Shown here piece after piece: positions 42,418 to 58,572 of a DNA stretch of 64,000 bases. The DNA lies in the NCBI GenBank assembly GCA_963704165.1, contig CAVPHD010000006.1:5497-69496 (forward strand), read 5' to 3'. This DNA comes from an uncultured delta proteobacterium (GTDB lineage Bacteria > Myxococcota_A > UBA9160 > SZUA-336). The translations under genes were made by a program, and so were the position numbers. The notes below the pieces were generated by a model. The model saw only the letters and a program-made list of their open reading frames with translations, searched no databases and had not been told where the DNA came from. Every line of letters begins with the position of its first letter. Position 1 is the first letter of the stretch.

Positions 42418-43599
42418 CTAGTAGATCTCGAAGAGCCCCGCGGCACCTTGCCCGCCGCCGATGCACATCGTGACGACGCCCCACTTGGCCTTGCGGCGCT
42501 TGCCTTCGAGCAGCAGGTGACCGACGCAGCGCGCGCCCGTCATGCCGAAGGGATGGCCGACCGAGATCGAGCCGCCGTTCACGTTGTACTTCGACGGGTC
42601 GATGCCGAGCGTGTCGCGGCAGTAGAGGCACTGGCTCGCGAACGCCTCGTTGAGCTCCCAGAGATCGATGTCGTCGATCGAAAGGCCCGCGCGTTTGAGC
42701 AGCTTGGGAACCGCGTAGATCGGACCGATGCCCATCTCGTCGGGCTCGCAGCCGGCCGCCGCGAATCCGCGGAACGCGCCGAGCGGCTCGATGCCACGCC
42801 GCTTCGCCTCGCCGACCTCCATCAGAACGACCGAGGCCGCGCCGTCGGAAAGCTGCGACGCGTTGCCGGCCGTGATGAACTGACCCTCACCGCGGACCGG
42901 CTTCAGGCTCGCGAGACCCGCGAGCGTCGTGTCTGGACGATTGCACTCGTCCTTCGTCACCGTGTAGTCGACCTCGGACGTCTCACCGGTCTCCTTGTTC
43001 GTGACGACCATCCGCGTCTTCATCGGGACGATCTCGTGGTCGTACAGCCCGGCATTCTGCGCGGCCGCCGTGCGCTTCTGACTCTCGAGCGAGTACTGGT
43101 CCTGGTACTCGCGGCTCACCTTGTAACGCTCGGCGACGATGTCGGCGGTCTCGATCATCGGCATCCAGAGGCCCGGGTACTGCGCGGCGAGCGGCTTGTC
43201 GACCTGGAGCGTGAAGCCCTTGCCGGTCTGGCTGTGGGTGATCGACTCGACGCCCGCGCCGACGACGATCTGCTCGCCGTCGACGATGATGCGACCGGCG
43301 GCGGTCGCAATCGCGTTCAGGCCCGAGGAGCAGTGGCGACTCACCGTCACCCCCGTCGTCGTCACCGGGCAGCCCGCCTTGATCGCCGCGAGGCGCCCGA
43401 TGTTGTTGCCCGTCGTGCCCTGCGGCGTGCCGCAGCCGAGGACGACCTCGTCCACCTCGGCGGGATCGATGCCCGCGCGCTCGATCGAATGGCGGATCGC
43501 GTGGCCCGCCATGGCGACTCCGCCGGTGTTGTTGAATCCGCCGCGGTGGGACTTGGCGAGTCCGGTCCGCGCGGTCGAGACGATGACGGCTTCACGCAT
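42418..43599 (-). CDS. acetyl-CoA C-acyltransferase (thiolase)
   Basis: 393 aa, [21 protein letters not shown] (active Cys), [26 protein letters not shown]. Confidence 0.92.
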
Positions 43600-44050
43600 T
43601 TTCGTTTCCTCCTGGATCGAGAACGACGACCGGGATCACGCGCGCGGCTGCGCGCTTCTGGTAGTCGGCATACGGTGGGTAGAGTTCGACCATCCGCTTC
43701 CAGATCTGCGCGCGCTCGTCGCCTTCCGCGACGCGCGCTCGAGCCCGGAGCTTCCTGGCGCCGACCTGCAGCTCGCACTCGGGCTTCGCCTCGAGATTGC
43801 GGAACCAGATCGGGTGATCGGGCATGCCGCCCTTCGACGCGATCACGACGTAGCTCTCGCCGTGGCGGCCGTAGATCAGCGGCAACGCGCGCGGCTGACC
43901 GGAGCTGCGTCCGGTCGTCGTCAGCAGCAAGGTCGGAAGCAGGCCGGGTCCGCCGAGCGCGGACGAGTCCCACATGTGCGCCTTCTCGGGGTCGCTGCGG
44001 TAGAGCGCGATGTGTTCCGCGATCCAGGGAATCGCACTGAAATCGGCCAT
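43592..44050 (-). CDS. deazaflavin(F420)-dependent nitroreductase family protein (DDN/DUF385-like split barrel)
   Basis: 152 aa from ATG 44050 (GGAGG RBS). LLLTTTGRSSGQPRALPLIYGRHGESYVVIASKGGMPDHPIWFRNLEAKPECELQVG...RVIPVVVLDP. Confidence 0.8.
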   Translation of the reverse strand: MADFSAIPWIAEHIALYRSDPEKAHMWDSSALGGPGLLPTLLLTTTGRSSGQPRALPLIYGRHGESYVVIASKGGMPDHPIWFRNLEAKPECELQVGARKLRARARVAEGDERAQIWKRMVELYPPYADYQKRAAARVIPVVVLDPGGNENA

Positions 44051-44118
44051 GAATCCTCCGCTGGGGGGCCGAGTATGTGTCATCGTTCCGGCCGATGCAC
44101 ATCCTCGAAGAGGGGGCG

Positions 44119-44595
44119 ATGGACCGGCTGCAGCGAATCATGATCGGGCACGGCCTGCTGGTCATTCTCGTGGCGATGTTGGCCGGCTTCATGCTGATGT
44201 TCTCGCTGCTCGGCGGGTTCGAGATCTGGCCCGGTCGCTTCCTGCCGTTTCGCGTCTACGGGACGCCCGAGGGTTGGATTCGCGCGCACTCCGGCGGCAC
44301 CATGAATGGCCTGTTGGTGATCGTCGTCGCGCTCGCCTTGCCGAAGCTGAACCTCGGAACGCGGATGCAGAAGTTCACCGCATATGGATTCGCCTACGTC
44401 GCGTGGTCGTTCACGGTCTTCTACTGGTTCGGAAACGCCGCTGCCAACCGCGGGCTCAGCGTCGGAGACAACACCTTCGGCGCGTCGGATTGGATCGGCG
44501 TCCTCGCGTTCCTGCCGGCCCTGCCGAGCGTCGTGATCGTCGTCGTGCTGCTGGCGATCGCCGCGACGGGTGTCGCTTCGGCACGTCGCGACTAG
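44119..44595 (+). CDS. styrene-oxide-isomerase (StyC)-like small integral membrane protein
   Basis: 158 aa from ATG 44119, four predicted TM helices. GHGLLVILVAMLAGFMLMFSLLGGFEIWPG, GTPEGWIRAHSGGTMNGLLVIVVALALP and FYWFGNAAANRGLSVG resemble my recollection of Pseudomonas StyC (GHGILMIF...LVGGFEIIPG, GSPEGWARAHSGPALNG, NRGL). Confidence 0.6.
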   Translation: MDRLQRIMIGHGLLVILVAMLAGFMLMFSLLGGFEIWPGRFLPFRVYGTPEGWIRAHSGGTMNGLLVIVVALALPKLNLGTRMQKFTAYGFAYVAWSFTVFYWFGNAAANRGLSVGDNTFGASDWIGVLAFLPALPSVVIVVVLLAIAATGVASARRD

Positions 44596-44993
44596 CGCGG
44601 GTCGAGCCGGACGGAGAGCGGGTCGCTGCGCTGGACGAGGCCGTACCACCCATCGACCCAGCCGTACTTCGCGGCAAACGCGCGCTCGACCGCGCGAAGC
44701 TGCGCGTCGTCGCGGACGATCACGGCCGTACACCGGACGGTGACGCCCGCGCGCGTGAGTTCGACTTCGGGGTTCGCCCGAAGCTCCGCACCCAAGCTCC
44801 GAACCGAGCGCGCGATGCGCACGTACGGGCGACCATCGACGTCGACGATCCAGAGCTTCGTTTCGTGCGGGCGCCCGGCGTCGTCGAAGCTGCGCAGCTC
44901 CGCGACCTCCGTTCGCTCACCCGCGAGCCAGGCGCCGAGTGCGATCAGGAACAGGCCCGAGAGCGAGATCGACGCGATCCTGCGGAGACTCAC
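44592..44993 (-). CDS. membrane-anchored hypothetical protein, split-barrel (DUF385/PNPOx-like) domain suspected
   Basis: 133 aa, GTG start, N-terminal TM (IASISLSGLFLIALGAWLAG). Then HETKLWIVDVDGRPYVRIARS...LRANPEVELTRAGV...AKYGW. Confidence 0.55.
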   Translation of the reverse strand: MSLRRIASISLSGLFLIALGAWLAGERTEVAELRSFDDAGRPHETKLWIVDVDGRPYVRIARSVRSLGAELRANPEVELTRAGVTVRCTAVIVRDDAQLRAVERAFAAKYGWVDGWYGLVQRSDPLSVRLDPR

Positions 44994-48465: not shown

Positions 48466-49314
48466 ATGGCTGACTCACCGCGAAGTGACGAGCGAATCAT
48501 CGGCCCGGTGTCGGTAGAAGGCGCGGGAATCGCACCCGGTCGCGACCGGCTCGCGGGACGCCGGATCCTGGTCGTCGGCGCGGGCACGCAGGCCAGCCCC
48601 GAGCTCGACGCGCCGATCGGCAACGGGCGCGCGATCGCGCTGCTCGCCGCGCGGGAAGGCGCTTCGGTCGCGTGCGCGGACATCGATCCGAACGCGGCGA
48701 GAGAGACGCTCTCGCAGATCGAGAAGGAAGGGGGCCGCGGCTGCGTGATCGTCGGCGACGTCTCCGAACCTTCCGCCTGCGTTCGGATCGTCGCCGAGGC
48801 CGAGCACACGCTCGGCGGAGTCGACGGCTTGGTTCTGAACGTCGGCATCGCGGCGGGCGCACGGCTCGCCGGCACCGATGCCGAGGCCTGGGACCGGACC
48901 TTCGCGGTGAATCTGCGCGCGCACTTCCTGATCGCGCGCGAGCTCCTGCCCCGCCTGGCGCCCGGCGCCTCGATCGTCTTCATCAGCTCGATCGCCGCGC
49001 TCGGTCCGGGCTCGCGCCTGCCGTCGTACGACGCGTCGAAGGCCGGGCTCGCGGGGCTGATGCGCCACGTCGCGTTCGAGGGCGCGCGAAGCGGAGTCCG
49101 CGCGAACGTCGTACTCCCCGGACTGATCGACACGCCGCTCGGCCGCAGCGCGACGCGCGGCCGTCCGTCGCGCGCGCGCACGCCGGTTCCGCTCGGGCGC
49201 CAGGGGACGGGCTGGGAAGTCGCGCACGCCACGGTCTTCCTGCTCTCGGGCGAAGCGAGCTACATCACGGGCCAATCGCTCGTCGTGGACGGCGGACTCT
49301 CCGCGCTGACCTAG
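48466..49314 (+). CDS. SDR family oxidoreductase
   Basis: 282 aa. ILVVGAGT...GNGRAIA, NVGIA, YDASKAG, VLPGLIDTP. Confidence 0.85.
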   Translation: MADSPRSDERIIGPVSVEGAGIAPGRDRLAGRRILVVGAGTQASPELDAPIGNGRAIALLAAREGASVACADIDPNAARETLSQIEKEGGRGCVIVGDVSEPSACVRIVAEAEHTLGGVDGLVLNVGIAAGARLAGTDAEAWDRTFAVNLRAHFLIARELLPRLAPGASIVFISSIAALGPGSRLPSYDASKAGLAGLMRHVAFEGARSGVRANVVLPGLIDTPLGRSATRGRPSRARTPVPLGRQGTGWEVAHATVFLLSGEASYITGQSLVVDGGLSALT

Positions 49315-50786
49315 CGCCGAGACGGCGCGTTCATGCGCGCGAGCCGCGGGTCGAGCTCCGGCTGAAGCGTCGACGGACGCGATGCGGCCTCGATCTCGAC
49401 GAGCGCGTCGTCGAGATCGCGTCCGAGCTGGTCGAGGTCCGGCGCGAGCTCCCAGTCGCCGATCAGTCCCCAGCAGAGCTTGCCGTCGTAGCTGAGCGCG
49501 GCGACGCCAAGACCCTGGCGCGCGAAGAGCGGCAGCTGCGGATGGATCTCGAGAACGCGCGCGCCGAGCAGGTAGAGCGGCTGCTGCGGCCCCGGCACCG
49601 TCGAGACGATCAGGTTGTAGGGATGCAGCCGCGTCGCGAGATCGACCCCGAGGCGCGTCAATGCGACCGATCCCGTTGCGTCGGCGAGGTTGCTGAGCAG
49701 CTCGATGCCACGGGCCGCGTCGGTCTGCCTCAGCCGCAGCTTCTGTTCACGGATCTGCCGGAAGCGCTCGCGCGGGTCGGGCTCGTCGATGGGCAGCGAA
49801 ACGAAAAGGGCCGAGACGTGGTTCGCTTCGTCGATCTCGCCCGACGTCCCGCGCCGATTCACGGGGATGCACACCTTGTAGTCGAGCTTCGCGAGCGGCA
49901 CGCCGCGTCCGATCAGGTAGCTGCGGATCGCTCCCGCGACGAGCGCGAGCACGACGTCATTCAGCGTTCCGTCGAGCCGGTTCTTCAGCGCCGTCAGCCG
50001 TGCGAGCTCGGTGGTGCGGAGCGCCGCGCGTCGGTGCGGGCCGATACGCTCGTTGAAGGGCGTCTCCGCGGGTGGGAGCAGCGCGCCCGAGAGCGACGTC
50101 GCGACCGCGCGGCCGCTCTCGACGAGGCCCGTGAGCGCCGCCCCGGGATCCCGCGCGACGGCCGCGGCCGCCCCGAGCAACCGGATCGGAAGCGCCAATC
50201 GCCGAACGAGCTCGTCGATGCCGAGCCGGAACGTGCCCGGATGCGCGCGTGCCTCGAAGTCGAGAACGCGTGAACCCTCGTGGACCTCGGGCGAGGGCGA
50301 GAGCAGCTTCGCGAGCACCCCCATTCCGCCGACGGCATCGACCATGCAGTGGTGAAGTTTGGAGATCATCGCGAATCGGTCCCCGGTGAGGGAGTCGACG
50401 ATCCACGTCTCCCAGAGCGGTTTCTCGCGATCGAGGTGCTGGGAGAGGATCCGACCGACGAGCGCCTCGAGCTGGGCGTCGGTTCCCGGGGTGGGCAACG
50501 CGGTGTGGCGCACGTGGTAGCCGAGGTTGAAGTGTTCGTCGTCCACCCAGATCGGCCGGCGCGTGATCGGCGTCCACGCCAGACGCTCCCGGTGGTGCGG
50601 CATGTCGTCGAGCGTCGCCTCGATGTGCGCGGCGATGCGATCGAAGTCGAGCGCGCCGTCCGCGCGCGCGAGCTTCGCCCGCTCGAAGATCGAGACCGCC
50701 GCCACGTGCATCGGCGTGGCCCGGTGCTCGAAGTGGAGGAACCAGCGGTCCTTGGAGGAAAGGGGCTCGTAGCCCGACGTTCGCAT
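49311..50786 (-). CDS. wax ester synthase/acyl-CoA:diacylglycerol acyltransferase (WS/DGAT)
   Basis: 491 aa. Catalytic HHCMVDAVGG (HHxxxDG). C-terminal DUF1298-type region NRRGTSGEIDEANHVS...PLY. Confidence 0.9.
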   Translation of the reverse strand: MRTSGYEPLSSKDRWFLHFEHRATPMHVAAVSIFERAKLARADGALDFDRIAAHIEATLDDMPHHRERLAWTPITRRPIWVDDEHFNLGYHVRHTALPTPGTDAQLEALVGRILSQHLDREKPLWETWIVDSLTGDRFAMISKLHHCMVDAVGGMGVLAKLLSPSPEVHEGSRVLDFEARAHPGTFRLGIDELVRRLALPIRLLGAAAAVARDPGAALTGLVESGRAVATSLSGALLPPAETPFNERIGPHRRAALRTTELARLTALKNRLDGTLNDVVLALVAGAIRSYLIGRGVPLAKLDYKVCIPVNRRGTSGEIDEANHVSALFVSLPIDEPDPRERFRQIREQKLRLRQTDAARGIELLSNLADATGSVALTRLGVDLATRLHPYNLIVSTVPGPQQPLYLLGARVLEIHPQLPLFARQGLGVAALSYDGKLCWGLIGDWELAPDLDQLGRDLDDALVEIEAASRPSTLQPELDPRLARMNAPSRR

Positions 50787-50798
50787 GCCCGACGGGCG

Positions 50799-51941
50799 TC
50801 AGCCGGCGGCGTTTGCGGCGCTCACCGGCGCGATGCCCAGATCGTTCATCATCATCGTGAACTTGCTGCGCGGGATCCGATCCTCGAATCCGGCACGGCG
50901 CAGACGGTGGAAGTACTCCTGCATCTGCTTCACCTGCAGGTCACCGACGATCTTCACGCCGTCTGCGATCTGGGCGGGTTTCGTGCCCTTGCCCGCGAGC
51001 ACGATCATGCACTCGGTGAGCGCGGCGTCGAACTGGCTGATCGTGACCGACTCCCCCTCGTCGAGCGCCGAGTGAAGCTGTTCCTTGCGCTCCGGCGTAT
51101 GGTCGATGGTCCACTTCAGGTGCTGCAGGCCGTACGAGACGTGACGTGCCTCGTCCTGCATCACGAGCTGGAACATGCGCTTGTCCACGGGCGTCGGCGA
51201 AATGAACTCGCTGAAGCGGAACATCGTCAGGATGTTGCCCTCGGCCAGGAGGTGCATGAACGCCGAAGCGTCGCTGTAGGTGTCGCCGTCGAGGATCGCC
51301 TTGAGGGAGTGCTCGGCCTGCGGCAGCGCCTCCATCAGACCGACGCCGCCCGCGAGCGCCCGCTTTCGGAACACTTCGGCGTGTCGCGCCTCGTCCATCG
51401 CTTGCGTGGCGATGAAGTGCTTCACCTCGTGGAACTGGTTGTTCATCCGCCAGAGCCACTTCGCCGGCAGGTCGGTCGCGATCATCTCGACCTCGGTGAA
51501 GAACGTGCAGAGCTGCGCGAATGCGACCTCGAGCTCCTCGCTGCGCTCGTACTTGTCGAGATCGCCCCAGGGAATGTCCGTCGTCGCGTCCCACTGGCGC
51601 GAGACCGCTTCCTCCGTGAACGACGCCACCTTGTACGCCCAGACGTCGGACTTGCGGTTCAGCTCCGGCTCGAGATCGGCCTGGACCTTCGGGTCGAAGG
51701 CCGCGCCCCGCGGCACCGCGCCCCGCGGCCCGCGCGGAACCTCGGGGAGCTCGTCGTAGCCGTAGCTGCCCTTGTTCACGTCGAGGTAGGTGAACCCGCG
51801 CTTCGGGTTCTCCTGCGAGAATCGCAGCTTCTCGGTGCCGGCCTTCATCCAGCCGAGATCGAGGTTGCCCTTGCGGATGTCGCGCATGCGCAACGCGAGG
51901 TCGGAGTTGCGGCTCCAGTCGATCGGTCCGTAGTAGCTCAT
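50799..51941 (-). CDS. ferritin-like di-iron oxygenase-type protein (complete 2x E...DEARH ligand set)
   Basis: 380 aa from ATG 51941 (GAAGGGGAGAG RBS). FFTEVEMIA-(30 aa)-MDEARHAEVF and LLAEGNILT-(26 aa)-MQDEARHVSYG. Confidence 0.8.
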   Translation of the reverse strand: MSYYGPIDWSRNSDLALRMRDIRKGNLDLGWMKAGTEKLRFSQENPKRGFTYLDVNKGSYGYDELPEVPRGPRGAVPRGAAFDPKVQADLEPELNRKSDVWAYKVASFTEEAVSRQWDATTDIPWGDLDKYERSEELEVAFAQLCTFFTEVEMIATDLPAKWLWRMNNQFHEVKHFIATQAMDEARHAEVFRKRALAGGVGLMEALPQAEHSLKAILDGDTYSDASAFMHLLAEGNILTMFRFSEFISPTPVDKRMFQLVMQDEARHVSYGLQHLKWTIDHTPERKEQLHSALDEGESVTISQFDAALTECMIVLAGKGTKPAQIADGVKIVGDLQVKQMQEYFHRLRRAGFEDRIPRSKFTMMMNDLGIAPVSAANAAG

Positions 51942-51960
51942 CGCTCTCCCCTTCCCCGGC

Positions 51961-53043
51961 TCAGCTGCGGAGCAGCCGCAGGAACTCCGGCAACGGGCTG
52001 CGCGAGCGGCGGTCGCCAAGACCCGCCGCCATGCAGCGCCTGAAGTATTCGTCGGTCGTCCGCTCGTAGAGGCCGGCGACGGGCTCGAATCCGCCCGAGA
52101 TCAGCACGAGCGGCTCGATCATCTCGGGCGCGCCGAGCGCCCCGACGAGCGCGTTCTCGGACAGGTCGAGGTGGTTCGAGATCCGCTCGGCCTCGATCGG
52201 CCGCGCGTGCAGCAGGCCGCGGATGTGATCGACGCCGTAGGCGATGAAGCGCGTCGCATCCTGCGCGAGTCGAACGCCGAGGAACGAGTCCACCGCGTTG
52301 GTCGCGGTGTATTCGAGGTGACGTCCGATCGCCTGAATCCACGAGAAGAGCAGGAGGTTCATCGAGGCCGAGGCCTCGGGGTACGAGTCGGCGGTGAAGA
52401 TCGACTTCAGAAACGCACCGAACTCCGGACAATCGACCCCGAGCTGGCCGTCCCCCGCGAGCGCGCGTTTCCGGAACGCCTCGGAGATGCGCGCGGCGTC
52501 GTACATCTGCACGCACATCAGGTACTTGATCTCGTGGAACTCCTGGTTCATCCGGAACTCGTACGAAGCGGCCGTGTCGCAGGCGACGAATCCGGCCGAG
52601 ACCAGATTCGTCGAGAGCTGGCGGATGGCGTGCGCGACCTGCTCGGAGTGACCCGGCTCGTCGAGCGCGGTCCAGGGCACGTCGTGCGCCGGCGCCCAGC
52701 GCCGGGACTTCGCCTCCTCGAAGAGGGTCGGTGCGACCTCGGCCCAGACATCGCTCTTTCGATTCAGGCGGTAGCCGAGCGACGGCAGGCCCGGGGGCAG
52801 GATCGCCCCGCGCGGCGCCATCGAGAAGTTGTGCCGCACGACCTCGGGGAGGTGATCCGGCGAGTACGCGCCGTGGTTGATGTCGGTGAGCGTCAGCCCC
52901 CGCGCGGGTTGGCTGGGCCGGAACGAGGCCCGCTCGCCGATCTTCTTCATCCACGACAGGTCGAGCTGGCCGGAGATCGTGCGGATCATCTTCGCGACGA
53001 TCTCGGGATCCTGGCTGTAATCCTTGGGTGCGATGTAGGACAT
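51961..53043 (-). CDS. paralog of the di-iron protein with all metal-ligand positions substituted (putative non-catalytic partner subunit)
   Basis: 360 aa from ATG 53043 (AGGAGA RBS). Collinear with 50799-51941 (MSY..P.D, RKSDVWA, FRKRALAG), but the ligand helices read VSAGF...YDAARISEAF and LLLFSW...AQDATRFIAYG. Confidence 0.75.
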   Translation of the reverse strand: MSYIAPKDYSQDPEIVAKMIRTISGQLDLSWMKKIGERASFRPSQPARGLTLTDINHGAYSPDHLPEVVRHNFSMAPRGAILPPGLPSLGYRLNRKSDVWAEVAPTLFEEAKSRRWAPAHDVPWTALDEPGHSEQVAHAIRQLSTNLVSAGFVACDTAASYEFRMNQEFHEIKYLMCVQMYDAARISEAFRKRALAGDGQLGVDCPEFGAFLKSIFTADSYPEASASMNLLLFSWIQAIGRHLEYTATNAVDSFLGVRLAQDATRFIAYGVDHIRGLLHARPIEAERISNHLDLSENALVGALGAPEMIEPLVLISGGFEPVAGLYERTTDEYFRRCMAAGLGDRRSRSPLPEFLRLLRS

Positions 53044-53051
53044 CGGTTCTC

Positions 53052-53474
53052 CTACGAGGCCTTCACTTCGAGATACCGCGCCTGGTCGAAGAACTCCTGG
53101 ATCGATGCCATGAAGCGGTAGAACTTGTCGTGCCCTTCGGCGTCGGCGGTTTCGACCCGGAGCAGGTCGCCGACGTGCGAGAGCGTGTTCAGGGTGTGCT
53201 TCGCGTCCGCGCCGCCGTGCTCGACGATCGCCTCGATCATCTCCTTCCAGATCGCCGGCGAACCGCTGAGGACGAAGTCGAGCCGCGCGGGATCTCCGCC
53301 CTCCTGGACGTGGACACACTCGTAGACCTCGAACCCGATCGTGTAGAGGTCCTTCCCGACCCGAACGCCGAAGCTCGTGTCGCAGTAGCCGAGCTTCTCG
53401 AATCGGACCTTGTCTTCCTTCGTGCGCTGCTGGAGCGCCTGAAAGAACTCGAGCGATGGGAAACGGATCGCCAT
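53052..53474 (-). CDS. small SCP2-like (putative lipid-binding) protein
   Basis: 140 aa, GGAGGA RBS. MAIRFPSLEFFQALQQRT...FGVRVG...YTIGFE...DFVLSGSPAIWKEMI pattern resembles SCP2-type sterol/lipid carrier domains. Family call is tentative. Confidence 0.55.
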   Translation of the reverse strand: MAIRFPSLEFFQALQQRTKEDKVRFEKLGYCDTSFGVRVGKDLYTIGFEVYECVHVQEGGDPARLDFVLSGSPAIWKEMIEAIVEHGGADAKHTLNTLSHVGDLLRVETADAEGHDKFYRFMASIQEFFDQARYLEVKAS

Positions 53475-53578: not shown

Positions 53579-54349
53579 TCAGCTCCCGAAGGAGCCGTGG
53601 CGCCCGGCCCCTCGCGCGAATCGCGAAGCCCCCTCGAGCGTCTCGCCCGAGGCGATCACCTCGAGCCCGAGGCGCGTCTCGAGGCGAAGCGCATCGTCCT
53701 GCGAGAGCGGCCACTGCTGATAGGAGGAGAGCCGGTCGCTGCGCAGGCATCGCTGCGGGAACGCGGCGAGCTGGCGCGCGAGCTCGATCGCTTCCGGCAG
53801 GGCGCGGCCCGGATCGACCAGCCGGTTCGCGAGCCCCATCATGCGCGCCTCTTCACCCGAGACGCCGCGGCCGGTCAGGATCAGATCGAGCGCGTGGGAG
53901 TGGCCGATCATGCGGGCGAGGCGAATCGTTCCGCCGTCGATCAGCGGCACGCCCCAACGGCGGCAGAAGACGCCGAAGACCGCGTCGCGCGCGGCCACGC
54001 GCAGGTCGCACCAGATGGCGAGCTCGAGGCCGCCGGCGACCGCGTAGCCCTCGACCGCGGCGATCACCGGCTTGCCGAGCAGCATGCGCGACGGCCCCAT
54101 CGGACCGTCGCCGTCGGGGCTGACGCGATTCCCGCGCCCCTCCGAGACGCCCTTCAGATCGGCACCGGCGCAGAAGGTCCCCTTCGCTCCGGTGAGAACC
54201 GCCACCGACGATGATTCGTCCGCGTCGAAGCGCCGGAACGCCTCGGCGAGCGCCGATGCGGTCGGACCGTCCACCGCGTTGCGCGCGGCCGGCCGGTCGA
54301 TCGTCACGATCGCGACCGGCCCGTCGGTCTCGTAGCTGACTTCCGCCAT
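53579..54349 (-). CDS. enoyl-CoA hydratase/isomerase (crotonase) family protein
   Basis: 256 aa. VAIVTIDRPAARNAV, LTGAKGTFCAGADLKG, AAVEGYAVAGGLELA. Confidence 0.9.
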   Translation of the reverse strand: MAEVSYETDGPVAIVTIDRPAARNAVDGPTASALAEAFRRFDADESSSVAVLTGAKGTFCAGADLKGVSEGRGNRVSPDGDGPMGPSRMLLGKPVIAAVEGYAVAGGLELAIWCDLRVAARDAVFGVFCRRWGVPLIDGGTIRLARMIGHSHALDLILTGRGVSGEEARMMGLANRLVDPGRALPEAIELARQLAAFPQRCLRSDRLSSYQQWPLSQDDALRLETRLGLEVIASGETLEGASRFARGAGRHGSFGS

Positions 54350-54416: not shown

Positions 54417-56795
54417 ATGGATGCCCCGATCCTGTCACTTCCTCCGACCGGGCTCGTCGCCATCCTGGTCTCGCTCACGTACCTCGCCCTCGCGGTCGTG
54501 CGCATTCGGCCGGAATGGGTGGTGGACCACGCGCGCGCCGTGCTCGGCGTGCTCGCGGCGATCTCGCTCGTCGCCGCCGTCGCGCTCGTCGATCTGCGCA
54601 CGCTCGAGCCGCGCGTCCGCCTCGACGCCTCCGAAGAGCCGCTGATGCTCCGCCACGATCCGGCGCGGGCGGTCTACGCCGAGGCCATCCGCACGTTCGG
54701 CAACGACGACATCTACGTGATCGCGATGCTCACCGACGACGTCTTCACGGAGGCCGATCTCGGAGCGCTGCGTCGGATCAGCCACGCGGTCCTGAAGCTT
54801 CCAGGCGTGCGGCGCGCCGAGAGCCTGGTCGACATCCCGAGCTATCGCTGGGATCCGGAGAAGCTCTGGCTCGACGTCTCGGACTTCATCGACGACATCC
54901 CCTCCGAACCCGCGAGGCTCGTGGATCTGCGCCGGCGCGCGCTCGCCGATCCGATCTATCCGAAGCTGGTCGTGTCGCGCGACGGCTCGGCCGCCGCGAT
55001 CAACCTGTCCTTCCACGAGATCGGCGACCGGGCGTTCGTCGATCTCGGGCTCGACGACGCGATTCGCGCGATCGCGCAGGCGGAGACGGCCCCCGGCCGC
55101 GAGTTCCGTTTCGCGGGACGCCCCCACGTGAAGTCGCGCGCCGCGCTGATCATGGCGCGGGATCTCTCGCTCCTGATCCCGCTCGCGGTCCTCGTCGCGG
55201 CGTTGGTGGTCTTCCTGACGACGGGCTCCGTGCGCGGGGTGTTCTCGCCGCTGCTCGCGTGCCTGACGTCGGTGCTCTGGACGTTCGGCCTGCTCGCGTT
55301 CGCCGGGCTCTCGATCAACCTGATCACGATCGTGCTCGGCCCGATCCTGATCACGCTCGGCGGGCTGTACGGCGTGCACATCATCGCGCGCTGGGAGCAG
55401 GAACGAGAGCACGTGGACAACGCGCGCGATGCCGCGCTCGCGACGCTCCGCGACGTCTTCGTTCCGGTCGTCCTGTCGGGCGTCACGACCAGTGCGGGAT
55501 TCGCCGCGCTCGCTCCCGGTGGCATTCCGGGCATCGAGGAGCTCGGCACGTTCGCGCTCTTCGGAACGTCGGTGCTGACGCTGATCTCGATCACCGGGAT
55601 CCCCGCCGCGCTCGCGCTGCTTCCGCACCGAAAGGGCGCGAGCGGGACGACGCGCTCCGGTGCGACCTTCGGACGAAGACTCGACGACGGGCTCGCCCGG
55701 CTCGCCGTCGCCTGCTGCACGCACGCGACTCCGATTCTGATCGCTTGGGGCGTGATGACGGCGATCGGGATCGCCGCGCTGCCGCGAATCGTGATCGACA
55801 CCGACTACCTGACCTACTTCGCCGAGAGCTCGCAGGTCCGACGCGACTTCGCGTCGGTCAACGAGCGTCTGATCGGACCGGTGCCGCTCTACGTCGAGCT
55901 GATCGGCGAGATCGAGGGCACGTTTCGGGAGCCCGAGAACCTGCGCCGGATCGAGGCGCTTCAACGCGAGATCGAGGCGCTTCCCGGAGTGGCCGCGACG
56001 ATCTCGATGGTGGACCCGCTTCGGCTCCTGAATCGCGCGCTCGAGCGCGGCGATCCCGACGAGGAGCGCATCCCGGACACGCGCGAAGAGGTCAGCGATC
56101 TCGTCTTCATGGTTCCGAAGGCGGAGCTGCGCCGCTTCGCGAATTCGAACCACAGCGAAGCGAACGTGATCGTGCGCACGGGCGAGCTCGGCTCGCGCGC
56201 GGTGCGAACATTGGTCGGACGGATCGAGGACGTCGTCGCGCGGCTCGAGCTCGAGCCCGGGCTGCGTGTCGAGGTGACCGGCAATGCGGTCGTGCTGAAC
56301 CGCAGCGCCGATTCGCTCTCGGGAAACCAGATCGCGAGCATCGCGCTCGCGAGCGCGACCATCTTCGCCCTCGTCTACGGGGTCTTCCGCTCGTTGCGCG
56401 TCAGCCTGCTGGTGATGATTCCGAACCTTGCGCCGGTGATCCTGTTCTTCGGCTTGCTCGGGCTCGGGCTCGCCCCGCTCTCTCTGCCGACGAGCATGAT
56501 CGGATGCGTCGTGCTCGGAGTCGCGGTGGACGACACGGTCCATGTGCTGGTGTCGTACCGGCGCATGCGCGAGCGGGGATCGTCGCCCGAGGACGCGGTG
56601 CTCGAGACCCTGCGTCGGGTCGGCCGGCCGGTCGTGATCTCCTCGCTGATGCTGGTCGCGGGGTTCCTGACGATCATGATCTCGGGCTTCGCGACGATCG
56701 TCGAGTTCGGCTACCTAACGGCGCTCACGATGGCGATCTGCCTCTGCGCCGATCTGATCATGCTGCCGGCGCTACTCGTTCGCGCTCGCGCGTAG
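54417..56795 (+). CDS. MMPL/RND-superfamily transporter (HpnN-like, two sterol-sensing-like TM bundles)
   Basis: 792 aa, two 6-TM blocks each preceded by a soluble loop. Typical GVHIIARW...and VAVDDTVHVLVSY segments. Confidence 0.88.
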   Translation: MDAPILSLPPTGLVAILVSLTYLALAVVRIRPEWVVDHARAVLGVLAAISLVAAVALVDLRTLEPRVRLDASEEPLMLRHDPARAVYAEAIRTFGNDDIYVIAMLTDDVFTEADLGALRRISHAVLKLPGVRRAESLVDIPSYRWDPEKLWLDVSDFIDDIPSEPARLVDLRRRALADPIYPKLVVSRDGSAAAINLSFHEIGDRAFVDLGLDDAIRAIAQAETAPGREFRFAGRPHVKSRAALIMARDLSLLIPLAVLVAALVVFLTTGSVRGVFSPLLACLTSVLWTFGLLAFAGLSINLITIVLGPILITLGGLYGVHIIARWEQEREHVDNARDAALATLRDVFVPVVLSGVTTSAGFAALAPGGIPGIEELGTFALFGTSVLTLISITGIPAALALLPHRKGASGTTRSGATFGRRLDDGLARLAVACCTHATPILIAWGVMTAIGIAALPRIVIDTDYLTYFAESSQVRRDFASVNERLIGPVPLYVELIGEIEGTFREPENLRRIEALQREIEALPGVAATISMVDPLRLLNRALERGDPDEERIPDTREEVSDLVFMVPKAELRRFANSNHSEANVIVRTGELGSRAVRTLVGRIEDVVARLELEPGLRVEVTGNAVVLNRSADSLSGNQIASIALASATIFALVYGVFRSLRVSLLVMIPNLAPVILFFGLLGLGLAPLSLPTSMIGCVVLGVAVDDTVHVLVSYRRMRERGSSPEDAVLETLRRVGRPVVISSLMLVAGFLTIMISGFATIVEFGYLTALTMAICLCADLIMLPALLVRARA

Positions 56796-57629
56796 CGCGT
56801 CCACCGATTTCAGGCGCTGGGGCGCGAAGATCGAATCCTCGATCACCGGGTTGTCGACCACACGATCGATCTCGAGCACGGACTTCGTCTTCTCGGACAG
56901 GTCGTACATCGTGCTCTCGAGCGGAATCCAGACGCCGGAGTACGGCTTGATCTTCCCGCGCGGAATCTCGAGCTGCTTCACTTCGACGCCCGCTTCGTCC
57001 CAGTGTCGGGTGCGCAGCGGGACGTCGTAGTCCTTGTCGACGTAGAGCAGGCTCCGAGCGTAGGCCGGGTCCGTCTCGGGTCGGTGGTTCACGTCCACGA
57101 CCCAGACGGGGACGCCCTGGACCTCTTCGTCGGGAAGACGTTCGTAGGTCGCGTCGTCGATGTGACTGACCACGGCCAAGTCGTCGAGGCTGAAGTCACT
57201 GCCGAAGATCGACTCCTTCGCGGGCGCGATCCGCATCACACGCTCTCGCTTGCGCGAATAGTGGAACCCCTCGTCCTCGGTGCCCTTCCGCTCGATGAAC
57301 AGGTACGCGGTGTCGCGTTTGTCGTAGGGCTCGGTGAACTTCATGATCGTCTTCGAGATGACCGTGCCCTTGGGCGCGGACTCGGACGTGCGAAGATCCT
57401 TGAAACGCGACCAGAACTTCAGGTTCTGGACGCTCCCGCCGGGATCGGTCGAAGACATCCGATGCTCGAAGTACGCCGTCTCGAGCTTGTTGTCGAGAAC
57501 GCGTTGGTAGATCGCGCGCCCGTCGAGCCCGTCGGTCCCGGGCAAGGCATCGTCGGCGGCGCGCGACGTCGGAGCGACGAGCGGGAGAGACAGGAAGAGC
57601 AGGAGGATCCGGGCGTTCCGCACTCGCAT
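56772..57629 (-). CDS. outer-membrane lipoprotein-sorting (LolA-like, PF17131-type) protein
   Basis: 285 aa. Signal peptide MRVRNARILLLFLSLPLVAPTSRA. ...FHYSRKRERVMRIAPAKESIFGSDFSLDDL..., a family commonly paired with MMPL/RND genes. Confidence 0.8.
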   Translation of the reverse strand: MRVRNARILLLFLSLPLVAPTSRAADDALPGTDGLDGRAIYQRVLDNKLETAYFEHRMSSTDPGGSVQNLKFWSRFKDLRTSESAPKGTVISKTIMKFTEPYDKRDTAYLFIERKGTEDEGFHYSRKRERVMRIAPAKESIFGSDFSLDDLAVVSHIDDATYERLPDEEVQGVPVWVVDVNHRPETDPAYARSLLYVDKDYDVPLRTRHWDEAGVEVKQLEIPRGKIKPYSGVWIPLESTMYDLSEKTKSVLEIDRVVDNPVIEDSIFAPQRLKSVDALRASANE

Positions 57630-57672: not shown

Positions 57673-58572
57673 CTAGTCCCGCTTCGGCTTCGCTCCTCCC
57701 TTGCGGCCGGAGCGGGTCCGGCTCCCGTAGTCACCGAACGGATCGTCGCGATCGCGCACGGCGTCGCGGAAGCCCTTGCGCTGAGCGTTTGCGACGAAGT
57801 CGAGCCCCTCCTGGGTATGGCGAGCGATCCCGTCGAAGAGCGTGCCGAGCAGGCGGCTCGAGGCCAGGCCCATGTTCTCGGCGGTCTGGTTGCAGAGCAG
57901 CTTCAACATCACGAGCTGATTGGTCGGAACGCGCGCCATGCGCTTCGCGAGCGCGAGCGCGTGATCGTCGAGCTCGGCGTCGGGAACGGTTTCGAGAATC
58001 AGCCCGATCTCCGCGGCTTTGCTCGCGGAGATCTCGTCGCCGGTCAGCATGTAGCGCTTGGCCTGCTCGAGACCCATGCGGTAGACCCACATCGCGGTCG
58101 TCGGCGTGCCCCAGACGCGCGACGGCGGATAGCCGAAGCGCGCGCCCTCGCCGGCGACGATCAGGTCGGCGCAGAGAACCATGTCGGTGCCGCCGCCGAT
58201 GCACCAGCCCTGCACGGCCGCGATCGTCGGCTTCTTCGCGTACCAGAGCTTCATGTAGGTCTCGACGAAGCGGCCCATCATGCGCAGGTCGGAGACCGAG
58301 TCCCAGACACGCTTCCGTGTCGCCCCGCCCTCGGCGCCCTGGGCGGCCGTTCCCCAGTCGAGCGCATAGCCGGCACAGAACGCCGGGCCTTCGGCGCGGA
58401 GCAGGATGACGTGGGCCGCCGTCGCGGCGTCACCGGCATCGATGGCCGCCTCCAGCTCGTCGCGGAGCTCGGGCGTGATGGTGTTGTACTCGCTCGCCCG
58501 CGAGAGAGTGATCACGAAGACGCCCTCGTCGACGTGGGTGCGCAGACACTTCGGCTTGGTCCTGGTCGTCAC
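57673..58572 (-). CDS. enoyl-CoA hydratase-related (crotonase-fold) protein
   Basis: 299 aa, GTG start with GGGGAGGG RBS. VFVITLSRASEYNTI, RAEGPAFCAGYAL, AAVQGWCIGGGTD. Confidence 0.85.
   Translation of the reverse strand: MTTRTKPKCLRTHVDEGVFVITLSRASEYNTITPELRDELEAAIDAGDAATAAHVILLRAEGPAFCAGYALDWGTAAQGAEGGATRKRVWDSVSDLRMMGRFVETYMKLWYAKKPTIAAVQGWCIGGGTDMVLCADLIVAGEGARFGYPPSRVWGTPTTAMWVYRMGLEQAKRYMLTGDEISASKAAEIGLILETVPDAELDDHALALAKRMARVPTNQLVMLKLLCNQTAENMGLASSRLLGTLFDGIARHTQEGLDFVANAQRKGFRDAVRDRDDPFGDYGSRTRSGRKGGAKPKRD

Follow-up and report, generated by a model that had tools for sequence, protein, structure and literature searches.

Ferritin-fold two-metal enzymes carry out oxidations of C–H bonds that are among the hardest, including those in methane, alkanes, fatty-acyl chains and aromatic CoA esters, and new members of this fold have repeatedly brought new chemistry, as with BioE, VlmB and possibly R2lox. 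The logic of one live and one dead subunit is already known from PaaA/PaaC and from the alpha and beta subunits of the soluble di-iron monooxygenases (SDIMOs), and hydroxylase helpers of the SCP2 type are already known as UbiJ and UbiT. Here, we analyze a stretch of 64,000 nucleotides (the window) from an uncultured delta proteobacterium (GTDB Myxococcota_A; assembly GCA_963704165.1, contig CAVPHD010000006.1, positions 5,497 to 69,496), which carries three adjacent genes, C, B and A, referred to as the trio. They encode a ferritin/R2-fold protein with a predicted complete two-metal site (A), a paralogue of A that lacks the metal ligands (B) and a small protein of predicted SCP2 fold (C). We propose, at a probability of about 0.5, that the trio forms a new kind of heteromeric enzyme, a two-metal oxygenase or desaturase whose substrate is a hydrophobic chain brought in by the SCP2-like subunit. 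The original prediction for this locus, made from the sequence alone, had called the module uncharacterised, and A, B and C indeed belong to no described family.

Proteins of the trio

The three genes lie in the window as follows.

53052-53474, minus strand: C, 140 aa, first gene of the trio, accessory protein of predicted SCP2 fold
51961-53043, minus strand: B, 360 aa, metal-free paralogue of A
50799-51941, minus strand: A, 380 aa, ferritin/R2-fold protein with a predicted complete two-metal site

Longer upstream extensions of the A and B open reading frames (ORFs) were set aside, and the starts were taken at the MSYY... and MSYI... methionines because the homologues begin there and have lengths of 379–381 and 360 aa.

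The putative metal ligands of A are E150/E152 (TEVEM), E184xxH187 (DEARH), E234 (AEGN) and E264xxH267 (DEARH), and the full EEEHEEH set is kept in 45 of the 46 A orthologues obtained from 55 genome loci. Both E150 and E152 are conserved in ligand-complete relatives and both are lost in degenerate ones. An AlphaFold2 model of A (predicted local distance difference test score, pLDDT, 91.5; predicted template-modelling score, pTM, 0.89) has a long, mostly non-helical N-terminal arm of ~100 residues followed by an R2-like helical bundle. Hence, A combines the four-helix core and the E...ExxH...E...ExxH pattern by which ferritin-like and R2-like di-metal carboxylate proteins are recognized, and the ligands and the model together support its placement in the R2-like ferritin superfamily with a complete carboxylate/histidine two-metal site.

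Known families do not accommodate A. All Pfam matches were below threshold, with 19 bits for DUF455, 18.5 bits for R2 of ribonucleotide reductase (RNR; PF00268, cut-off 33.6) and 15.5 bits for AurF (PF11583, gathering cut-off 29.6), for which 9 of 48 family representatives also gave weak matches. The NCBIfam R2lox models scored 29.9 bits against a cut-off of 194 (NF006200) and 13.2 against 315 (NF006202). Neither A nor B matched PaaA/PaaC (PF05138) or the SDIMO hydroxylase (PF02332, Phenol_Hydrox) at E <= 0.1, nor did A match acyl-ACP desaturase (PF03405) at the same limit, and a single-sequence phmmer search of PDB chains returned nothing significant for the trio proteins. A is therefore outside the definitions of RNR R2, R2lox, AurF, PaaA/C, SDIMO hydroxylases and acyl-ACP desaturases. 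BioE, a ferritin-like acyl-thioester-cleaving oxygenase with its own repressor, was also considered and ruled out, given that it is a small homodimer resembling aldehyde-deformylating oxygenase (ADO), with ligands at residues 26–158.

The top Foldseek matches of A in the PDB are the azoxy synthase VlmB and its homologue ‘protein 60’ (8wvr, 6d9f), and further matches include RNR R2 proteins, among them the Mn/Fe R2c of Chlamydia. R2lox gives the best superposition when the TM score is normalized to the target (0.65–0.69), and the alpha subunit of the methane monooxygenase hydroxylase (MMOH) reaches about 0.45–0.48; the Foldseek probability is 1.0 for RNR R2, R2lox, VlmB and MMOH alike. A profile of the family searched against PDB sequences finds the VlmB homologue at E = 2.9e-10 and R2lox at ~5e-7, with both ExxH motifs aligned. 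The position of the RNR R2 radical tyrosine, four residues after the first histidine ligand, is occupied by F191, which is nearly invariant in the family.

A might also be something other than an oxygenase. ExxH pairs are common to the whole ferritin superfamily, and the strong fold matches to RNR R2 together with the lack of a linked reductase gene would fit a ferritin-like protein that acts as a ferroxidase, handles iron or detoxifies peroxide, or else a radical generator of the R2 type whose partner gene is unlinked. We give such roles next to no weight, as A has a 380-aa R2-like fold and not the compact fold of ferritin or rubrerythrin, F191 leaves no radical tyrosine, no NrdA-like gene is adjacent in any locus examined, and neither an SCP2-fold partner nor a ligand-free paralogue has a role in iron storage or detoxification.

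The likeness to R2lox would allow another reading, in which A is a ‘ligand-binding oxidase’ that, with a ligand of the fatty-acid type bound, would activate O2 a single time to modify itself or to act as a sensor, instead of turning over repeatedly as an oxygenase, while B and C stabilize it or load the ligand. R2lox is among the best matches by superposition and profile, R2lox and R2c have a phenylalanine at the RNR tyrosine position as A does, and the trio has no linked reductase gene. What R2lox itself does in the cell is still debated (PMC9314684). However, the NCBIfam score of 29.9 bits is far from 194, and the residues of the R2lox Tyr–Val cross-link, a valine three after the first glutamate ligand and a tyrosine five before the third, have no counterpart in A. 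The +3 position of E150/E152 is M153 or T155, M229 lies five before E234, and residues 224–233 contain no tyrosine, the R2lox register being taken from a profile alignment that is ambiguous in that stretch. In addition, R2lox proteins are homodimers without a ligand-free or SCP2 partner, and a ferredoxin gene found right after A-like and C-like genes in Acidimicrobiia (see below) points to turnover. We consider the single-activation reading unlikely.

B aligns with A from end to end at 36% identity (E = 2e-72), and the EEEHEEH positions of A read S, G, A, I, F, A and F in B. The ligand set is present in none of 49 B orthologues, and Pfam and NCBIfam scans of B gave no match. B is nevertheless an intact ORF that is conserved despite the loss of ligands. 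With 46 A and 49 B orthologues split in this way, the difference is neither chance nor peculiar to one genome. Mean pairwise identities among the group-1 orthologues (defined below) are 80% for A and 65% for both B and C; slower change in A than in B and C is the pattern expected of a catalytic subunit with two accessory subunits. On contig L068, from a distant relative, a ligand-complete A-like gene (EEEHEEH) is directly followed by a degenerate paralogue with QAAHGNH, which supports the view that the pairing of an intact and a degenerate copy recurs, in this case as a second, independent example.

C matched nothing in Pfam (including SCP2, PF02036), in NCBIfam or among PDB sequences, and no precomputed Pfam domain is recorded for the 120 C homologues listed. 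Its AlphaFold2 model (pLDDT 91.5, pTM 0.87) is different: the top 15 Foldseek matches in the PDB are all SCP2 proteins or domains, led by Thermus SCP2 (2cx7; TM 0.65–0.72, E = 4e-5) and including 1wfr, the SCP2 domain of human MFE-2 (1ikt among the matches) and UbiJ-SCP2 (6h6o). The model thus has the alpha/beta fold of SCP2 while the Pfam SCP2 model does not recognize the sequence, and structure prediction with fold search confirms an SCP2 fold that sequence methods do not see. This makes C a candidate carrier of a hydrophobic substrate. MmoB/DmpM (PF02406) gave no Pfam match at E <= 0.1, and the fold matches are to SCP2 and not to MmoB. A redox or metal-binding role of C through Cys31, Cys53, His93 and His100 was considered and rejected, since the cysteines and His100 vary in distant C-like proteins; the loss of Cys31 and Cys53 there argues against a metal or Fe–S role.

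Much of what had been read from the sequence alone stands. All four segments of the di-iron-type signature claimed for A (TEVEM, MDEARHAEVF, LLAEGNILT and MQDEARHVSYG) are in the translation, as are the segments VSAGF, DAARI, LLFSW and QDATRF cited for the ligand-free paralogue, and the full-length alignment and the orthologues bear out that substitution. The suggested logic of a catalytic subunit with a retained metal-free paralogue gains further support from the independent L068 pair. The label ‘SCP2-like’ for the 140-aa protein was right by predicted fold, whereas the PF02036 search itself gave no match. The original prediction had also proposed searches with profile hidden Markov models; none of the three proteins reached a Pfam or NCBIfam cut-off, and there is no characterised homologue.

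Conservation and gene neighbourhood

We searched the window proteins with tblastn against 55 loci from metagenome-assembled genomes of Myxococcota, ‘Deltaproteobacteria’ and Binatia. About 50 loci of Myxococcota and Binatia carry the trio, in many cases with two copies in one genome, and C adjoins A/B in 43 or more loci. Two groups can be told apart. In group 1, A is 74–84% identical to that of the window and the order is C-B-A, as in the window; in group 2 (L035–L046, L048, L049, L051 and L054; for example, L039 6762-10242), A is 52–62% identical and the order is C-A-B. Both groups can occur in one genome (for example, L023 with L041, L016 with L044 and L027 with L054). A TetR gene of the TetR_C_15 type is nearly always present directly upstream of the group-2 trio (14 loci), and an AraC-type regulator gene is found at some group-1 loci. 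A regulator directly upstream in many loci suggests ligand-inducible expression, and the presence of two trios in one genome suggests that they serve different substrates or are regulated differently. In three loci (L024, L025 and L042) the A sequence derived by tblastn contains an in-frame stop, which could stem from an alignment running past the C-terminus, a mistake in the assembly or a pseudogene.

Beyond the trio, little is shared. In Pfam counts over 165 neighbouring ORFs of 45 loci no family occurred in more than three loci except TetR and AraC, and the occasional neighbours were AraC, TonB-receptor and short-chain dehydrogenase/reductase (SDR) genes. The flanks are a TonB receptor, a KstD-like flavoprotein, enoyl-CoA hydratase (ECH) and CoA-transferase genes at L056; CBS, AdoMet synthetase and diadenylate cyclase genes at L060; and thioesterase, thiamine pyrophosphate-enzyme and sugar-modification genes at L061. 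ECH genes are found within a few kilobases of the trio in about 9 of the 55 other loci. As the flanks vary while C/B/A stays, the conserved unit is the trio.

In the window, the surroundings of the trio are as follows.

49311-50786, minus strand: wax-ester synthase / diacylglycerol acyltransferase (WS/DGAT), 491 aa, 12 nt downstream of A
48466-49314, plus strand: SDR, confirmed by Pfam/NCBIfam, converging on WS/DGAT with a 4-nt overlap
53579-54349, minus strand: crotonase-family enoyl-CoA hydratase/isomerase (ECH_1 E = 1.9e-39; PRK08259 412 bits, cut-off 273)
54417-56795, plus strand: MMPL/HAE3 transporter of the resistance-nodulation-division (RND) type (PF03176 E = 4.9e-36; HAE3 TIGR00921 211 bits, below cut-off)
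56772-57629, minus strand: LolA-like protein of the lipoprotein-sorting fold, partner of the RND transporter (PF17131 E = 9.4e-35)
57673-58572, minus strand: second crotonase, beyond the RND/LolA-like pair
about 58.6-59.5 kb, plus strand: MOSC protein, beyond the RND/LolA-like pair
42418-43599, minus strand: thiolase
43592-44083, minus strand: F420H2-dependent quinone-reductase-family gene
44592-44993, minus strand: PNPOx-like gene

The trio and WS/DGAT are co-directional on the minus strand with intergenic gaps of 8 (C/B), 19 (B/A) and 12 nt (A/WS/DGAT). The first crotonase lies upstream of C in the same direction and ends 104 nt from it; the MMPL gene diverges from this crotonase and is followed by the LolA-like gene. 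There is no ferredoxin or reductase gene within ~10 kb of the trio in the window, and a scan for promoters and terminators over 48.8–54.8 kb gave zero sites. WS/DGAT is a clear member of its family, with PF03007 at E = 8.7e-60, PF06974 at E = 3.7e-26, the motif HHCMVDAVGG (HHxxxDG) and 383.5 bits against TIGR02946 (cut-off 309.95).

The link of WS/DGAT to the trio is narrow. The nearest genome relative (L069–L071), with an A 91% identical to that of the window, is syntenic through MOSC, ECH, LolA-like, MMPL, ECH, C, B, A, SDR, two methyltransferases, MatE and CrcB, but it has no WS/DGAT, and A and the convergent SDR abut directly. Scanning of metagenome contigs with the WS/DGAT of the window found two, L074 and L075, with the order MMPL-ECH-C-B-A-WS/DGAT, in which A is 92% identical and WS/DGAT, 7 nt after A, is 77–78% identical to that of the window. 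Two further metagenome contigs carry a WS/DGAT of 73–74% identity in other gene contexts. No other genome locus examined has a co-directional WS/DGAT directly after the trio; in L031 the gene abuts A on the opposite strand, and in L010, L021 and L040 distant paralogues lie kilobases away. The crotonase adjoins C in L069–L071 and L074/L075, an adjacency that is confined to this near clade, and the MMPL gene is conserved only in L069, L070, L074 and L075. The LolA-like gene is likewise restricted to this clade, and its protein is 82% identical in L069.

The four-gene arrangement most likely arose by addition of WS/DGAT at the 3' end of the trio operon, and a conserved partnership with the trio was rejected because the gene is missing in the syntenic nearest relative and the other genome loci have no co-directional copy right after the trio. 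When 48466-50799 of the window is set beside L069 9145-10673, the WS/DGAT gene appears as gained between A and the SDR in the window. In L069, a nitroreductase gene lies beyond the SDR; it is missing from the window. The region immediately 3' of the trio is a hotspot of gene turnover. Being limited to a narrow clade, WS/DGAT is a weak and local functional hint and not a defining feature.

The original prediction had placed the trio and WS/DGAT in one operon of four genes without a reductase or ferredoxin gene. The coordinates, the three spacings, the crotonase 104 nt upstream and the divergent MMPL gene agree with the ORFs, the WS/DGAT identity is secured by the two Pfam families, TIGR02946 and the HHCMVDAVGG motif, and the absence of reductase and ferredoxin genes holds within ~10 kb. 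A survey of relatives had been suggested, and it divides the claim: the three-gene C/B/A module is widely kept, whereas the four-gene arrangement is real and has survived some divergence, yet is restricted to a narrow clade, with WS/DGAT after A only in the window and L074/L075. The further idea of a module feeding neutral-lipid synthesis (wax ester or triacylglycerol) is not supported as stated, since the WS/DGAT, MMPL, LolA-like and crotonase links are all limited to the clade.

The wider family reaches well beyond these phyla. A HMMER search of 1.84 billion cluster representatives (clusters at 50% identity) gave 800 clusters at E <= 1e-3, and 365 when the limit was tightened to E <= 1e-10. 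In their source records the proteins are called nothing more specific than ‘hypothetical’, ‘ferritin-like domain-containing protein’, ‘DUF455 domain-containing protein’ or ‘sulfurtransferase TusA family protein’. We scanned 48 members (A, B and 46 full-length representatives); none reached the Pfam gathering score for a ferritin-type family, about half have the full ligand set, the rest are degenerate to varying degrees, and 10 have an N-terminal TusA-like domain.

In the Acidimicrobiia locus L063 (GCA_027494115.1, 8001-9981), a FAD oxidoreductase and an acyl-CoA dehydrogenase (ACAD) gene are followed by A-like (41% identity), C-like (38%) and 4Fe-4S ferredoxin genes. The ferredoxin has 128 aa, and this is the only locus seen with an electron carrier directly adjacent to the module. 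A MOSC-domain gene lies near this module, as in the window. On an Actinomycetota contig, a beta-oxidation cluster comprises MaoC hydratase, ECH, thiolase, ACAD, ECH and SDR genes, includes two ferredoxins, and ends with genes for an A-like protein (32%), a zinc-type alcohol dehydrogenase, a C-like protein (34%) and a second SCP2 protein. C-like genes stand beside A-like genes in the Actinomycetota loci L063 and L064. The A–C partnership thus spans phyla, and the linked electron carrier, where present, is a ferredoxin. A TusA-fused homologue and a Chloroflexota homologue are also near ACAD genes, and the recurrence of ECH and ACAD near family members is suggestive of an acyl-CoA connection.

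Two further subsets of the family were noted. A large TusA-fused sister subfamily with the full ligand set (P0267, P0281, P0277 and about 100 relatives) occurs in Dehalococcoidia, Actinomycetota, Armatimonadota and the cultured Firmicutes Cohnella caldifontis and Neobacillus sp. LXY-4; the sole annotations of its proteins are ‘sulfurtransferase TusA family protein’ and ‘DUF455 domain-containing protein’. Four degenerate members (P0260, P0269, P0284 and P0361) share one site, with E/Q at 150, H at 187, D/G at 234, K at 264 and H at 267. This remodelled site is conserved and not random, which hints at a different cofactor or a metal-free function rather than simple decay.

The gene neighbourhoods also bear on two other readings of the trio. 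The VlmB homologue and azoxy synthase (6d9f, 8wvr) are the best PDB matches by both profile and fold and AurF gives weak matches, so A might be an N-oxygenase or azoxy-synthase-type enzyme of a specialised-metabolite pathway. We regard this as highly unlikely: no locus has a biosynthetic gene cluster around the trio, the genes flanking it differ, its strong conservation (80% identity across many genomes) is unlike that of typical secondary-metabolite genes, the AurF score of 15.5 bits is below the cut-off of 29.6, and VlmB and AurF have no ligand-free or SCP2 partner.

Alternatively, the trio could hydroxylate a polyprenyl or isoprenoid lipid (a quinone intermediate, a sterol or a hopanoid, for example), with the SCP2 subunit acting like UbiJ/UbiT or like COQ9 with the di-iron COQ7. 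UbiJ-SCP2 is among the fold matches of C, and UbiU–UbiV–UbiT, a paralogous heterodimer with an SCP2 protein (PMC6747719), provides a known precedent. The trio is self-contained and strongly conserved with variable flanks and two paralogous copies per genome, and the RND transporter in the window is weakly similar to the hopanoid and sterol transporters HpnN and BstA. However, the transporter falls far short of the HpnN and BstA cut-offs, C is closer to the generic bacterial SCP2 (2cx7) than to UbiJ, and no quinone, sterol or hopanoid biosynthesis genes are beside the trio in any locus examined. The phyla concerned use menaquinone, the synthesis of which needs no ring hydroxylation. We find an isoprenoid-lipid hydroxylase quite unlikely.

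Proposed function

In the reading that we prefer, of a heteromeric oxygenase or desaturase, A would be the catalytic, alpha-like subunit, an R2-like four-helix bundle with a carboxylate-bridged metal pair (Fe/Fe or Mn/Fe) that activates O2. B would be its structural, beta-like partner, as PaaC is to PaaA or the beta to the alpha subunit in SDIMOs, and C would bind a hydrophobic chain and present it to A. The electrons would come from a ferredoxin or reductase encoded elsewhere in the genome; acyl-ACP desaturases, ADO and AurF-type enzymes likewise obtain theirs from a ferredoxin encoded elsewhere. The outcome would be hydroxylation or desaturation of the chain, and in the near clade only, where WS/DGAT has been added, the product may enter wax esters or triacylglycerol. 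The analysis shows the gene order, the kept and lost ligands, the predicted folds and the conservation of the trio; that the three proteins form a complex and use O2, and which substrate and reaction are involved, are points that we infer.

The most probable substrate is a long aliphatic chain, either acyl or alkyl, and it may be a CoA thioester. An aliphatic substrate is favoured because of the SCP2 fold of C, the nearest solved relatives of A, the acyl-CoA neighbourhoods and the lipid-related flanking genes of the clade. Those nearest solved relatives, of the VlmB/‘protein 60’ type and R2lox, accommodate aliphatic chains at the metal site. Purified R2lox comes with bound C16/C18 hydroxy fatty acids (PMC9314684), and one report assigned alkane hydroxylase activity to it using crude recombinant enzyme (PMC10867098).

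Several observations weigh against the heteromeric oxygenase. The helix-1 ligand of A may be either E150 or E152. A has no characterised homologue, and its likeness to VlmB and R2lox is one of fold and profile, at 15–19% identity. No ferredoxin or reductase family is linked to the trio among the neighbouring ORFs surveyed in the Myxococcota loci, and the flanks are heterogeneous and in part unrelated to lipids, as at L060. Three group-1 loci (L007, L022 and L061) have B and A without a detectable adjacent C, which may be encoded elsewhere in the genome or be dispensable there. Finally, the acyl-CoA hint comes from common gene families (ECH and ACAD) and is only suggestive.

A bolder form of the proposal, which we offer tentatively, is that the SCP2-fold protein replaces the effector or coupling protein and passes a water-insoluble lipid to a ferritin-fold hydroxylase of alpha / pseudo-beta type, and that the trio is the first example of a new class of multicomponent two-metal oxygenases whose lipid would be an alkane, a long acyl chain or a polyprenyl compound. 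The WS/DGAT of the clade would then esterify the oxygenated or desaturated chains, for example, from alkane to fatty alcohol to wax ester. If true, this would be an unrecognised route of hydrocarbon or lipid oxidation in uncultured Myxococcota and Binatia.

Comparison with known systems

The phenylacetyl-CoA epoxidase PaaA/PaaC/PaaB (with PaaE) is alike in having a catalytic ferritin-fold di-iron subunit, a homologous ligand-free subunit and a small third subunit. Crotonase-family genes are nearby in both cases, and the substrate of PaaA/C is a CoA thioester, which is possible for the trio. However, A and B are larger than PaaA/C, share an N-terminal extension of ~110 residues and do not match PF05138. 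PaaB is helical whereas C has a predicted SCP2 fold, and the trio is not linked to a PaaE-type reductase or to aromatic-acid pathway genes.

The SDIMOs (soluble methane monooxygenase and the phenol, toluene and alkene monooxygenases) likewise combine an alpha subunit that carries the metal site with a ligand-free beta subunit of the same fold, need a small accessory protein (100–140 aa), and include MMOH alpha, which matches A at the fold level. In contrast, A has 380 aa compared with about 500 aa in the alpha subunits, neither Phenol_Hydrox nor MmoB/DmpM is matched in Pfam, C resembles SCP2 and not MmoB, and the trio operon lacks a gene for a reductase or Rieske ferredoxin.

R2lox shares an R2-like fold with a channel for a hydrophobic ligand, a phenylalanine in place of the RNR radical tyrosine and profile-level similarity to A. 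It differs as a homodimer with neither a degenerate paralogue nor an SCP2 partner, and A does not have its Tyr–Val cross-link residues. The azoxy synthase VlmB and the aldehyde-deformylating ‘protein 60’ (8wvr, 6d9f) are closest by profile, over ~150 residues, and are the top Foldseek match, and enzymes of this type are di-iron proteins that accept aliphatic substrates. VlmB is 19% identical to A, with a TM score of about 0.5, and acts alone inside a biosynthetic gene cluster, whereas the trio has no such cluster and two dedicated partner proteins.

A parallel to C is found in ubiquinone synthesis, in which UbiJ or UbiT (with UbiI/H/F or UbiU–UbiV) and COQ9 (with COQ7) are small lipid-binding proteins that present a very hydrophobic substrate to a hydroxylase, and UbiU–UbiV is, like A and B, a heterodimer of paralogues. 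The Ubi hydroxylases are, however, flavoproteins or U32-family Fe–S proteins, and COQ9 does not have the SCP2 fold.

An SCP2-fold partner of a ferritin-fold two-metal enzyme was not found described in the literature searched. Hence, what is new here is the combination of an SCP2-type protein and a dead paralogue with a ferritin-fold enzyme, and the protein family itself, neither of which was found described. The family comprises about 800 clusters with no Pfam or NCBIfam model and no characterised member, and it is highly conserved in abundant uncultured lineages of Myxococcota, Binatia, Acidimicrobiia and Chloroflexota. The architecture of the trio suggests how soluble oxygenases could, in general, be supplied with substrates that do not dissolve in water.

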